From NCBI GenBank assembly GCA_040954595.2, contig CM082578.2, positions 8,479,519 through 8,543,518 on the forward strand: a stretch of DNA of 64,000 nucleotides, in the 5' to 3' direction. The stretch is from Balanoglossus misakiensis (Eukaryota > Animalia > Hemichordata). Below the pieces are notes generated by a model. That model was given only the letters and a program-made list of their open reading frames with translations, searched no databases and had not been told where the DNA came from. The position numbers were made by a program, and so were the translations under genes. This document shows, piece by piece, positions 33,701-39,700 of the stretch; the first letter of the stretch is position 1; the number at the start of each line of letters is the position of its first letter.

Positions 33701-36700
33701 ACGACGACGTATTGAATCACGTCTACCAGTACTGGACCCCGCCCACTCGGCGCCTGCCTCCGTTGCTGTGGATACGAATACGCTCGGCCCTGTCGTCGTA
33801 CCTGGTGGAGAGGGGAGCGGACGGGTCACGTGTCATATATTGGTATCATAGACAGTTTATCGAAGCGGCGAGGGAACGATACCTGAGTGACGAACGACAG
33901 ACCAAGAACATACACGGGGGACTGGCAGATTTTTTCAGCGGAAAGTGGGCAAACGGTATGTCACTTTATTTAAAGAATGACTCGCTTACAATGTGATTGA
34001 AATCAGATATAGAGGGTTGGCTCGATCTTTACATTTGCTGCTGTTTCTCTGGTAACTTTACATTCTTCAGAAATCATTTTGGACTGAAGATGATCACAAT
34101 CTCTGAATATAGGTCACTCGTTCACTTCTTTATCCGTCACACACACAGGCGCTAAGAAAAGCTACGTCACTAGACAAGGCCAGAAAAGTGAAGCTGACCG
34201 CTTCGTTGCATCTCAGCCGCTCGCCTTCACGTCAACCAAATACAATCTCAGGAAGCTGAACCAGTTGCCGCTACAACTCATCCGCAGTGGTAACCTGGAC
34301 TCGCTGAAAACAGATGTGCTGTGTAATTTCGATTGGTTGCTGACAAAGATACAAGCAACCAGCTTTAGGTGAGTGGGTGGTTGGTTGATTGTGTGTCTTC
34401 CTGTCTGTCTGCCTGTGCTGTGTGTGCCGTGTGCCAATTATTGAGACATGAGATGCACCTTCTGTAATCAAGATGGCTGCCAATAAATTTCAGTCGATAG
34501 AAAACGTGACGGACGTCTGACATGTCTGGAAGACTTGCTCTGTAGGCCTAAAATTATTTCAAAACAGTTTTGTGCAATAGATAATTCTCAAGCGGTAGTT
34601 TGCACTGTCGTTCACATCGTTCTCTCGCACGGGTCGTTTGTTCGACTACAGTCTCCCTATAACATTGTATAAAGAACTTATTTTCGGAGAGCAAAGAGAT
34701 CTTTGCAGGCGCGAAGATGTATCGTCCGCTACGCGTTCCAAAATGAATATTGCGAATGCCCGGATGGTAATAACTTCTGCGCGTCCGCTCCCGATTCGCG
34801 AACGTCACGATGGCAACTTTGTGCGTGCCTCTTCCCGAATTTCGAACATCTCGATGGTAACCCTGTCAACAAAACAACTCACTTTCCATCGAGCGATCAG
34901 CCATGGAAGACCCGTTCGTGTTATCTCTCGTGCATTTCGCGGATTTACCGCCGGGCATGACTTTCTTTACCACGATGACTTATCTGACTGTAGTATTCTT
35001 TCGAAGCAACCGGTGGACTTGGCCAAAACGACGTGGTAAGTGTAAAACCTTGCGTATTTTGAGATTTTCATAGTGTACCAACAGCGTGTCACTTTGTAGC
35101 ATACAAGTATAGGCCCTAGTGCGTGTGTAGACCTTGAAGTAGACTCCTCGATTTGTGTGTTATCATATGGGGTTCGATCATGATCTCTAGACGCTAGACT
35201 AAATGACCATCACTTAAGCTTCATATTAATTTCTCTTGACGGAAAAAAGGGAAGTACGCGTGGAAATAAAACTGAAATATCGAGCATCTTTCACCGTTCC
35301 ATTGAAAGCAGATTTTCAGAACCTATTGGCTAGCATCGGGTGTGAATATGATTTTAAATAATCAAGACAGCAATAACAGAGTCATTTAGATATATGTATT
35401 TCAACATTGTTATATTCGATTTTAGCAGGCGCCAGTAAAAAATCGAAGTCCAGGCACTCCAAGAAGGAGAAGAGCGATTCTTCCGATGAGATTGTTGTCT
35501 TACATGTCTTGGAGTCCAGCGTCGATCCGCGCCGTCTGCCATTGGTTGGGAAGAATGGTAGACGTAAAGGCGACAAGAAATCCCAGCCTCTGTTCGCCGA
35601 CGCCTTGGACGACCTGTTTGGAGCGAAAACTCCACTGGAGACGATGATGACAAATTTTGTCGAATCCTCGGCAGTTTCCAAGCTGCAACAACCAACTGGC
35701 GATGTTCTGTACGATCTTCTGACCGAAGAGACGACTCCACTGGAACTGATGATGATGGACCTCATCGAGTCCTCGGTCATTTCCAACGCACTCATGCAAA
35801 TCGAAATGCGTCCAACCGAAGACCAAGACAAAGCTGAGTCTTTGAACGACCTGGAAACTGGAGACAAGATTCCGACCATCGAGTTGTCTGCTGCCGACAG
35901 CGGTCTCCTGGAGACGGTGGGTCAGGTCACCAGACCCAAGCTGCCCCTTCGGAAATCGATGTCCTGTCCCTACCTAGAGAAACCAGAAGTCTACCAGTAT
36001 GGCCCACGGCAAACTTCAATTCATCGTATTGAAGTGATCAGATTTGCCAACACCCAGGCTTGCAATCAGCCGTTGGATCGTGGATTTGACGTCGACGTAC
36101 CGGAGGAAGATGGTCGCATGACCTTGGATGACAAAGTTGTCACCCGTCTGGCGAATCAGATCACCTGGTCAGATGTCTTCTTCACTCCAATCTATGGCGC
36201 TGTGGCATTTGTTGCTATGATGGTGAGTTTTTTCAAACGCTTTTGCTCTCGAATACCTGATAACAAAAGTGTGTATGCGCGACGGCGCATGGATTATGCC
36301 TAAACATTCTACGGTATTTGACCATTAGTCCATGGAGTGAGAGTTTGACATCGCTATTTGGACGATTATTTGCAAATAACCACCCTTGATTTAGCAAAAT
36401 ATCTAGTTGCCCATTAGTACTGACATTGACAAGCGCTCTCCCTAAACTTTCCTTAAAAGCTATATTCTTTGCATTTCCTTCTCTCCTCAACGCAGATGAC
36501 TATGGCAATGGTTTTCCTTGTGTATGTACGACTGTACGAAGATTGCTTCAACATCGATTTGTACGAGGATTCAGCTGTCGGTATTATGCATTCTGCCATC
36601 TTGTACTTGATTCTACAGCTGTCTTTTACTGCGATCACCAATTCTCTCGCCATCAAACTCACTGATATGGGTACGTATAATAAACCTCTTTAGCCTAAGC

Positions 36701-39700
36701 AAGATCGCTGAACGTATTTGGGTTACTTTCAATATTTTTCTGATATTGCTTAATATAATTGTCTAATACACTCTGCTTATTTCCCTACAGAATACCACCG
36801 TGTTGAGAGTGCATATGAAGTATCTGTTCGTGTAAAGAAAGTCCTTCTGACCCTGCTGGGTATTGTTGCTCCTGTGCTTTACGTCATCGGCAGAATTGTG
36901 ATCAGGTATTATTATATGTGCTTTTGTTTTTTTTATTGTGTGGTCTGTCTTATTTCGCTTGTTTTGTTTTATATGCTCATCTGAATATATTTGATACGCG
37001 ATCTAACACTTTTCTTGTTTCAATTTGACAGATTGCTATTTCCGGCGGATTCGACTACAGGAATGTTGGATTATCTAAAACCCTTGCTGGCGGCAACCGT
37101 GTATCCTTGCTGGCTTCCTGACCCTGATCTCGATTCCTGTCCTGCGGCACCCGACGCTACCGTGAACGAACTAGCTCGGCTGACGTCTCATGTGATCCTC
37201 GTCACCATAATGACAATTATCGACCCTTTCAGGACCAATAATGGTGTGGTAGATGACCTGTTTTGGAAGAGGTCAGTGTGGTGGTTTCAGTCCTTACCCT
37301 AGTGAATGTTAGCTGTCTTACGATTCCAACTTTCCCCAAAAAGTAATTTCGCCTCCTGATTCAAAGAATAAATGTTTCAATTGTGTTCGAACTTTGCATA
37401 ACTATCGCCAAATGTGTGCCACTTTGTGAGCGGTAACTTCTAATGCCCGTGATTGTCCAGGAATTCGTGTACATATTTAGCCAAACAGGGTTTTCCCAGT
37501 CTCAAATTGAGATTTGTACATTTTCTTAAAATGCCTGTGACCTTTCAGAACTACATATTCAAGAGTTCGACGACTGGTATGGCACATTCCATCCAGAATG
37601 TCAAACCATAGGGGTATAACTCTATGGTCAAATCTTAACATGTTATTAAAACGTGACATTATTCCAAATTACAGGTTCAGAAGAGATACCAGGTGCAACG
37701 CAACACTTCCTACTGCCAAGAGAGACACCCGTCACCTCGACAACCATGTCTGAATGTAGCCAGCCGAATAACAGCTATCAACTTATCTGTTGGAGTCGAT
37801 ATACATTCTAATGACATATTATTAAGGTGTAATCTCTGCGACTTGTATACAAATAAGTCCGAATAAAAGTGTTCTTTTACAAATCCAAAAGTTGTGTGGA
37901 CCACATTTCTGTCTGTTTGTCCTACTCTTTTTGTTGTCCGTATAAGTGTACTGTCAGCAACTTCTCCATTTTGCGACCACTGGCGCTCGTAAATTAGAAA
38001 AAAAAAATAGTAGAAATGGTAAAATTTTACACAAACTCCATCAACATACGTGCACAACACAGAGCGTTTGACAAGAGACTCGCTGCATGATCGGTTTCAG
38101 CCGTTACATTCAGCACAACATTATTATCGGTATTATAAGACTTCACCAGTGTTTGGTTTTAGTCTTGATAAAAATTTTGTCGAAAACAGGGTAGGTATAG
38201 GTCAGTAAAGGTATTTATTTTCTAGACACTTATTCTTGATTCGCGTATTCTGTCCACGGCAGGGACGTAATGGATGATTTCAGAGCGGCAACCAAAGCCT
38301 TTCCACGTGACGAAGACATAACACGTGTCAAGGAAACGTTGCAGCTTTCAGAGGAAGGGATTCTATTAAGCCCGAATCAGTTACCCGGCCAATTACTCGG
38401 AAGGATGCCTGAAGTAAGTCTTTTCGTTTTAGTGGCCACATTCTCCCCGAAAAAGTTTGTCGATGGAGTTGTAATTTTCTTTCATAGATTAGAATTCCTC
38501 CATTTAGCCTCAACACCACCTCGCTCACGGTCAATAGTTTGCAGGCATTTCATAGTGAGCAACGTCTTGTTGCAGGATGCGTGCAACCTCCTTGACGTAG
38601 CTGCCATTGGTGACGTCACTGCAGGGTTACTGCCATCTCATATATGTCTCACGAAACAAGGTGGGCCGTTGGTGCACACAATGACGGGTCACACGGAGAA
38701 GGTGTCGGCCATAAGAATCACCGCAAACGGGGAATATGTCATCACAGGTACTGTCCGATTTTTATCATATTCGTATTCAGGAAACAAATTTCCATCTAAT
38801 GTAAAAGTGAGCGACTTTTTTGCAAATGACTTGATAATGTGGTTTTGTACAGTGTTGACGTCTTCCAGTGTCAGTTGGTAGACTCATTTACATAATTATC
38901 TTCAACAGGTGGGAACGACCAGACAATAAAGATATGGTCTGTCAGCGACGGGGTAATGGTGCGAAGCATCGAGGAGGCTGGAGCGAACATTGTGGACGTC
39001 CAACTCTGTCACAACGAGAAGTACATCGCCGTGGTTTCAGACAGCGACACGAGCATCTATCGATTCCAAAATGGCGAACTTCTGCAGAGGGTAGAGAAGA
39101 TCTCGGAACAGGACAGCAGTCGCCCCATGAACATTTTCAGCGTCACTTGCAGACTGTTCATCGTCGGGTTCGGATACGTGAAGATGGTCGATTTCTCGGA
39201 GAGTCTCGAGCCGCGGGCGCTTGACGGGGAGGTTGCGAGCGAGTTGGGCAACGCTCCCACCGTGTACACGGAGACTCTTTTCGCCGTTGTGGACGAGTGG
39301 GTGGTGTTCAAAGACCCGACGCACCGGTGCTTCACGATCGCGGACACCGCCCGGCGTCTGGCGCTCGTGCGGAGGGCGAGAATCTTCAAGCAGGAAGACG
39401 AGGAGAGGATACGTCTTCTGACAGGGACCCATCGAGGTGAAGTCCTGTTCGCGACAAAGCCCACGAACAGACTGATGCTGTATGACGTCAGGGGCGACCA
39501 GGTGTTGCAGAACGTGTTCCTGGAGAAGGTCAACGTCGAACCGACGTTTTACAACAGGCTCTGCTCCTCCGTGGTTGGTCCGTGCTTCAACGCAGTCTCT
39601 GAACGCGCCACCACCTGTTGGAATACGGACACGGGGTCGCATGTGGACGTGTATACCGGCTTCGCGACTCGGTCGGTTGTCACCACCCACGGTAAACTGC

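Follow-up and report, generated by a model that had tools for sequence, protein, structure and literature searches.

Anoctamins (the TMEM16 family) are known as dimeric proteins with ten helices and Ca2+ gating, and it is an open question whether the helices that line their groove can move lipids on their own. Here, we ask what is encoded by a small gene in a 64,000-nucleotide (nt) stretch of contig CM082578.2 of the acorn worm Balanoglossus misakiensis (the window, from whose first letter all positions are counted), which lies in an intron of an NWD1-like STAND nucleoside triphosphatase (NTPase) gene and resembles part of an anoctamin. Its predicted protein shares transmembrane helices (TM) 3 to 5 with anoctamins, probably arose by partial duplication at the DNA level and probably belongs to an acorn-worm family with the same cut-down design; we propose that it is a calcium-independent four-helix membrane scaffold and not a gated channel, a reading that we consider evenly poised between right and wrong. 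With only TM3 to TM5 or TM6 retained, such a diverged natural family would provide ready-made constructs for asking whether the groove is sufficient.

A predicted gene in the only large intron of its host

The nested gene consists of five exons at 34903–37302 (Table 1), on the same strand as its host, which join to 1488 nt encoding 495 amino acids and a TAG, with no internal stops. All of its introns are GT-AG, and the start codon stands in the context GCC-ATG-G. A preliminary description of this locus, which had reported a complete five-exon gene in the same orientation in the host's only large intron, is reproduced exactly: that intron measures 3894 nt, and the remaining 20 host introns 107–446 nt. 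Using splice-site matrices trained on the 21 host introns, the nested donors rank 2, 3, 6 and 13 among the 260 GT sites of the host intron, and the nested acceptors 5, 1, 2 and 7 among its 188 AG sites. In-frame codon scores are 0.00 to 0.36 in the nested exons compared to −0.34 to −1.03 in the nested introns, with a second reading frame of exon 1 scoring equally well (0.12).

The nested introns are 393, 273, 120 and 126 nt long, all multiples of three, compared to 7 of the 21 host introns (chance about 1 in 81). Since this might reflect a bias of the model towards one frame, the junctions were checked by homology, and junctions 2–4 are independently backed by the alignment with paralogs and by the intron positions of anoctamins, both described below. 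When neutral substitution was simulated in 1000 trials per level, 5% change left the nested frame open in 81 and 10% change in 5. The stretch directly upstream of the ATG is enriched in CpG, with an observed/expected ratio of 1.69 in 34619–34868 compared to 0.90 in other host introns, and contains short imperfect repeats (34749–34860). Exon 2 carries an in-frame duplication of 60 nt (35622–35681 and 35727–35786, 72% identical and 105 nt apart). We infer from the sequence that the gene model is real and ordinary-looking, and we predict that it is expressed.

The membrane part is homologous to anoctamins over TM3 to TM5

As a reference, we collected 114 metagenome loci using a TM5 motif, nearly all of which proved to be true anoctamins once translated, and built a canonical profile from 17 intact anoctamin frames. 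Against this profile, the nested protein reaches 27.2 bits once spliced, compared to 5.0 bits for the best of 500 shuffles. Joined exons 3 and 4 score 22.9 bits, compared to 3.3 for exon 3 and 0.5 for exon 4 alone (exon 5, −3.4), confirming that the family signature becomes visible only after splicing. Profile-profile alignment with anoctamins gives 95% probability over residues 299–400, from TM3 to TM5, in agreement with the earlier assignment of the TM4-TM5 stretch, and aligns TM6 solely in global mode. With the Pfam Anoctamin profile (PF04547), exon 3 alone reaches E 0.051, and exons 3–5 read with introns retained give at best E 0.02 or no match; a PDB sequence search with single nested exons returned no match, and one with the paralog P0001 (see below) returned afTMEM16 at E 0.026.

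Homology to anoctamins is firm for TM3-TM5 only, as judged by these alignments. The TM3-TM6 content claimed earlier therefore stands in sequence for the first three helices and not for TM6: against a TM6-only canonical profile, exon 5 did no better than shuffles (90 of 500 as good; for the best paralog, 16 of 500). The exon 5 helix is nevertheless likely to be equivalent to TM6, given its position, the matching intron and the models of P0001.

The positions of the introns point to how the gene arose. For the intron tallies, five of the 114 loci were removed as chance matches and two as too close to the contig end, leaving 107; for the TM3 intron, 21 loci with introns were selected by hand; the exon could be scored in 15 of them, and 14 carried a YR/YK anchor. 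Of the scorable animal loci, 14 of 14 place a phase-0 acceptor 13 residues ahead of the TM3 tyrosine (aligned with Tyr323), exactly where nested exon 3 starts. The linker glutamate is interrupted by a phase-1 intron in 31 of the 107 loci, as at nested exon 4, and 16 of these 31 also have a phase-2 donor followed by an in-frame stop, as at the end of that exon. Nested introns 2, 3 and 4 hence match animal anoctamin introns in both position and phase. Nested exon 5 starts at the start of the TM5-6 loop, and the intron that precedes the TM6 cysteine exon in canonical anoctamins has no counterpart here. Because introns 2–4 are shared with canonical anoctamins, retroposition is ruled out, and the nested gene likely arose when part of an animal anoctamin gene was duplicated as DNA, introns included.

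The rest of such a gene was sought across the window in six frames. The best candidate for a TM1-2 or TM7-10 exon scored 9.3 bits, compared to the 58–125 bits that the same profile gives TM7-8 exons in genuine loci, consistent with the earlier statement that TM7-10 and most of the Ca2+-binding acids are missing; further copies of the family were also sought in the window, and none was found. In the reference set, several animal-type anoctamin loci (L003, L008, L009, L029, L063, L068 and others) read on without interruption for 500 codons, up to an apparent exon boundary past TM6, which indicates that anoctamins with few introns occur among metagenome contigs.

A probable family of cut-down anoctamins in Ptychodera flava

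Searching 1.84 billion representative proteins with exons 3–5 gave three matches at E ≤ 0.001, and the profile of these retrieved five proteins among 4206 candidates. All five, here called P0001–P0005, are RefSeq 'uncharacterized' proteins of Ptychodera flava, located on four chromosome-size contigs (40–46 Mb); the set comprises XP_070562309.1, XP_070580915.1, XP_070535110.1, XP_070535249.1 and XP_070573860.1. P0001 is the closest to the nested protein, with 43% identity over 198 residues and colinearity through junctions 2–4 apart from a lone one-residue gap; the other four are 33–37% identical to the nested protein. Two of the relatives pass the Pfam Anoctamin cut-off of 28 bits (P0001, 38.9; P0004, 31.4), P0003 and P0005 fall slightly under it, and P0002 has no match. 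Four of the five stop 8–27 residues past a shared arginine and P0005 stops within TM5, so that none reaches TM7. A profile made solely from the paralogs scores 61.8 bits on exon 5 and 26.8 bits on the 3′ end of exon 2.

The N-terminus had been described as an unrelated acidic region. This description is incomplete, because the region opens with a hydrophobic stretch and a strongly basic cluster, resembling the N-terminus of P0005 (score reached by 1 of 2000 shuffles; sole positive of three comparisons), and part of exon 2 resembles P0004 (0 of 1000 shuffles, by a one-point margin; again the sole positive of three). Exon 2 had no homolog among 982 candidates of 169–539 residues and gave only sub-threshold Atlas rows. 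No family member longer than 487 residues was found among 7992 candidates scored, which is weak evidence.

In a tree from which P0002 was left out as too short, and whose bootstrap is not fully settled and parent anoctamin subfamily not resolved, the family sits on a long branch from canonical anoctamins and the nested copy has its longest end branch (0.93); Leu453 of this copy replaces a cysteine retained in four paralogs. Two pairs of P. flava proteins are recent duplicates, P0003/P0005 (94%, same contig) and P0002/P0004 (88%, different contigs), which together with partial gene models suggests that birth and death are still going on in this family.

The nested protein thus likely belongs to an acorn-worm family of cut-down anoctamins, whose multi-gene nature went unnoticed in the preliminary description. 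The family is apparently undescribed: judged from listings, the literature searched, with most subscription journals outside its coverage, contains no description of such truncated anoctamins. A survey of metazoan TMEM16 proteins by Yuan, Zhu and Kadowaki leaves proteins with partial anoctamin (ANO) domains 'unassigned', and its main text, as far as available, does not mention hemichordates (bioRxiv 10.1101/2022.04.22.489151); the supplements, with these unassigned proteins, may bear on novelty.

A possible alternative last exon

A strong unused donor at 37271 leaves the last exon uncertain on sequence grounds. Spliced to 37675, it would give a 511-residue form with a stop at about 37753; this acceptor yields the best paralog-like tail among 50 AG sites, by a small margin (12 versus 9). 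Reading through at 37271 produces Arg-Ser-Val, as in P0002 and P0004, and splicing to 37675 produces Arg-Phe-Arg-Arg, as in P0003. Seven endings scored alike against the canonical anoctamin profile, and none brings further anoctamin helices.

Structure, topology and residues kept or lost

The structure comparison proposed earlier was run on the paralog P0001 only. With VIA-align and Foldseek, both of which used a model from an alignment seeded with anoctamins, TMEM16 chains rank at the top, and no Foldseek match reaches E ≤ 0.001. The AlphaFold model from 41 sequences (mean predicted local distance difference test, pLDDT, 66.4) has long helices at residues 58–96, 103–134, 140–176 and 218–239; a first model from five sequences (pLDDT 40.9) was not used. 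VIA-align placed mTMEM16A first (Z 9.9, root-mean-square deviation 3.1, 126 residues aligned, 59–240 on chain residues 486–657), followed by afTMEM16, TMEM16F, TMC-1, TMC-2 and Ist2, with the first unrelated structure at Z 8.0; such values are not decisive for helical bundles. With Foldseek, eight of the top ten matches were TMEM16 or Ist2. The low-confidence Atlas model of P0001 gave TM-scores of 0.56–0.58 to three anoctamin clusters (residues 55–265) and 0.42 to the next, under the Atlas naming bar.

Residues 19–33 of the nested protein are moderately hydrophobic (mean 1.49) and are followed by 12 basic residues in 27. According to the positive-inside rule, this basic cluster would hold the exon 2 region in the cytosol, which is the orientation that TM3 requires. 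We infer a topology with an N-terminal anchor, a cytosolic disordered region, TM3 running in to out through to TM6 running out to in, and a cytosolic tail. Exon 1 was also considered as a remnant of TM2 and rejected (448 of 466 scored shuffles were as good), as were acid-flanked LC3-interacting region motifs, which the nested copy lacks and whose matches in paralogs were equalled by 228 and 814 of 2000 shuffles.

In place of ten helices, the nested protein has four anoctamin-like hydrophobic segments and the possible N-terminal anchor; TM7-8, needed for a five-acid Ca2+ site, and the TM10 dimer interface are absent, and the family is anoctamin-derived, not a canonical member. Four of the five conserved Ca2+-binding acids lie in TM7-8. 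In TMEM16 proteins, TM3-7 form the groove pathway, five acids on TM6-8 the Ca2+ sites and TM10 the transmembrane dimer (PMC6028493, available text). Since TM7-10 are absent, four of the five acids on that ligand list are lost, and neither Ca2+ gating nor the normal dimer is expected. At the remaining position, the TM6 glutamate, three of five paralogs have Asp and the nested copy Asn, in a part where the alignment is uncertain.

The scrambling domain of ANO6 comprises residues 525–559, with essential triplets at its N-terminal end, and a swap of N525-I527 abolishes scrambling (PMC4477620, in the part available). This domain maps to about residues 354–388, the best-conserved part of the nested protein, where Glu368, His370, Tyr376 and Lys383 are kept. 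At the position of N525, the nested copy has Ala/Thr and the paralogs have Ala/Gly. No family member that covers them keeps the two TM4 asparagines, the TM5 asparagine, the TM6 Gln or the TM6 Lys; the TM4 Asn found in 33 of 36 canonical sequences is Ser or Leu, and the TM6 Gln and Lys are hydrophobic or Thr. TM4 has fewer polar residues than in canonical anoctamins (2–3 versus 4.0). Tyr346, Gln350 and His459 are conserved within the family.

Possible functions of the nested protein

In the proposed scaffold, the TM3-4 and TM5-6 hairpins would anchor a long cytosolic binding region and present it, braced by the conserved Glu/His/Tyr/Lys residues of the linker and by the intramembrane Tyr346, Gln350 and His459, and the polar groove and the Ca2+ switch would have been given up. 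We favour this reading because conservation covers the linker that braces the fold but not the transport-specific residues or the switch, and because the protein has gained a long cytosolic region. Several observations weigh against it. The scaffold function is reached by elimination and is putative, and we hold it with half confidence. The part most conserved with anoctamins is precisely the scrambling-domain region, and polar residues are near canonical in TM5 (3 versus 3.5) and TM6 (4 versus 4.7), so the groove is not clearly depolarised; moreover, the invariance of the TM5 Gln/Asn in the canonical set is built in by the motif used for the search. The N-terminal anchor is missing from the models of P0001 and P0004, some models of paralogs seem incomplete or broken (P0003 begins at the exon-3 boundary, P0005 stops within TM5), and the nested gene may be a recent copy of an unseen parent elsewhere in the same genome.

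The conserved scrambling domain and the near-canonical polar counts of TM5 and TM6 would also suit a calcium-independent scramblase or leak, in which the isolated TM3-TM6 module would move lipids constitutively, by a retained groove open to the membrane or by thinning of the bilayer. That the acorn-worm modules are such natural minimal TMEM16 scramblases, without Ca2+ site, TM7-10 or dimer, seems to us unlikely. The retained helices do line the groove; in simulations, architecture outweighs groove sequence (bioRxiv 2025.06.27.662058, available text), and scrambling is possible through membrane thinning (PMC9095706, in the part available). However, the pathway has lost TM7 and the backing by TM7-8, and every member has substitutions at the N525 equivalent and at other groove Asn, Gln and Lys positions. 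A protein that scrambled constitutively at the plasma membrane would do harm, so this one would have to reside in the endoplasmic reticulum or be tightly restricted. If scrambling without Ca2+ proved true, groove helices would suffice without TM7-10, a Ca2+ site or a dimer; if not, the family would be an example of a channel module recycled as a four-helix membrane protein.

We regard it as rather improbable that the nested copy is a recently dead or never-expressed duplicate, a unitary pseudogene copy of a birth-and-death family. The long end branch with its lost cysteine and the broken-looking paralog models would both fit this, as would the absence of the nested protein from the matches of either protein database search. 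Set against them are 1488 nt without stop or frameshift, eight of eight canonical splice sites and a coding-like codon score. Neutral decay beyond about 5–10% would nearly always close the frame, which is intact though the nearest known paralog is 43% identical, and the intact frame weakens the case for a recent pseudogene.

It is very improbable that the nested exons serve as an alternative 5′ half of host transcripts, with the donor at 37271 spliced to host exon 17 (38263) to give a membrane-anchored WD40 protein. The rank of this donor (Table 1) and the join, which is in frame and open, agree with such a fusion, and the chain after TM6 would be cytosolic, as suits WD40 propellers; however, the phases would agree by chance in one case in three, two AATAAA signals precede the host exon, and none of the five P. 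flava paralogs contains WD40. Slimmest of all is the chance of a dominant-negative or regulatory partner of full-length anoctamins, as suggested in the preliminary description: helix-swap binding is conceivable, but the TM10 dimer interface and the cytosolic N- and C-terminal contacts seen in nhTMEM16 (PMC6028493, available text) are all missing, and the family lies far from canonical anoctamins in the tree.

The host gene and same-strand nesting

The host encodes, in a single open frame of 1655 residues, a DUF4062-like region, P-loop/NACHT, NWD1 winged helix and WD40 domains. The HTH_NWD1 match is clear (E 1.2e-10, 41.9 bits; Pfam cut-off 27) and WD40 matches too; the P-loop and DUF4062 matches, on single exons, are below the Pfam cut-off. 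The modelled host frame stays open when intron 16 (34369–38262) is spliced out.

The same-strand orientation had been called doubly odd, a view that published counts do not bear out. Human nested coding pairs comprise 75 parallel and 152 antiparallel cases, 227 in total (PMC2330155, available text), and a newer survey, in the part available, finds only a slight opposite-strand bias (PMC11694760). Same-strand nesting is a minority and not a rarity, and adds little to the importance of the find. As the paralogs are dispersed over four contigs, the host intron is likely a mere landing site, and the nesting likely reflects the insertion site of a dispersing family rather than a functional link with the host gene. 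Neither a tandem array nor a terminal repeat was found to mark an insertion.

Nested transcription can promote intronic polyadenylation of a host gene, as at H13/Mcts2 (PMC13309782, available text). By analogy, transcription of the nested gene could promote a sensor-less STAND isoform. Reading through into intron 16, the host frame meets an immediate stop (34369–34372), giving 889 residues that end ahead of every WD40 repeat. An AATAAA lies at 34482, 113 nt inside the intron and 5′ of the candidate promoter region of the nested gene; a lone hexamer may be due to chance.

Also in the window, a long (TCAA)n microsatellite (40828–41000) lies within a host intron, and a class C G-protein-coupled receptor gene of metabotropic-glutamate-receptor type (ANF_receptor, NCD3G, 7tm_3; three long exons, 22132–25576, + strand) is directly upstream of the host. 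Further features are a Rab GTPase-activating TBC-domain exon of 685 codons (6561–8618, + strand) and Cys-rich exons (43110–43985, − strand) that are convergent with the host and have no Pfam match; their hydrophobic tail presumably resembles a glycosylphosphatidylinositol-anchor signal.

Table 1 Features of the nested gene and its host (positions in the window; UTR, untranslated region)
Feature	Position	Strand	Description
Host NWD1-like STAND NTPase gene	28275..41869	+	22 modelled exons, 1655 amino acids open; ends approximate, 5′ end maybe incomplete
Host intron 16	34369..38262	+	3894 nt, phase 2; contains the nested gene
CpG-enriched stretch	34619..34902	+	Directly upstream of nested ATG; candidate promoter or 5′ UTR (putative function)
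Nested exon 1 (residues 1–44)	34903..35035	+	ATG; hydrophobic stretch at residues 19–33, then basic cluster; predicted signal anchor
Nested exon 2 (residues 45–309)	35429..36222	+	Long polar region, predicted disordered and cytosolic; then first half of TM3
Nested exon 3	36496..36670	+	Rest of TM3, outer loop, TM4; start at phase-0 intron position of animal anoctamins
Nested exon 4	36791..36905	+	Cytosolic TM4-TM5 linker (scrambling-domain region), TM5; starts in phase 1 and ends in phase 2, like its counterpart in animal anoctamins
Nested exon 5	37032..37302	+	Cys-containing outer loop, probable TM6-equivalent helix, short tail, TAG
Unused phase-2 donor inside exon 5	37272..37277	+	Donor at 37271; rank 5 of 260 GT sites
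AATAAA	37367..37372	+	Candidate poly(A) signal of five-exon model
AATAAA	37862..37867	+	Candidate poly(A) signal of alternative last exon

Comparison with known systems

As an arrangement of genes, the locus is like the same-strand nesting of H13/Mcts2 in that a gene lies within a host intron, and unlike it in that the nested gene retains its own introns, as expected of a DNA-level copy. Among small anoctamins, the closest comparison is the TMEM16M subfamily, invertebrate proteins without the dimerisation domain, which, unlike the nested protein, keep all ten helices and the five Ca2+ ligands (bioRxiv 10.1101/2022.04.22.489151, available text).

With TMEM16 proteins at large (PF04547; mTMEM16A 5nl2, TMEM16F 8b8g, afTMEM16 6dz7), the nested protein has in common the TM3-TM5 sequence, the cytosolic TM4-5 linker and three intron positions; models of the paralog P0001 suggest a four-helix arrangement like that of TM3-TM6. 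It differs from them in being without TM1-2, TM7-10, the cytosolic anoctamin domains and the TM10 dimer helix, in having at most one of the five Ca2+-binding acids, and in its replaced groove Asn, Gln and Lys residues, an extended TM5-6 loop carrying a YPCWL motif and a new N-terminal region. The P. flava proteins share this cut-down design at 33–43% identity and are colinear with the nested protein over the three junctions of the membrane part. The nested copy differs from them in its longer N-terminal part, in being one residue shorter at junction 4 and in having a leucine in place of the conserved cysteine.

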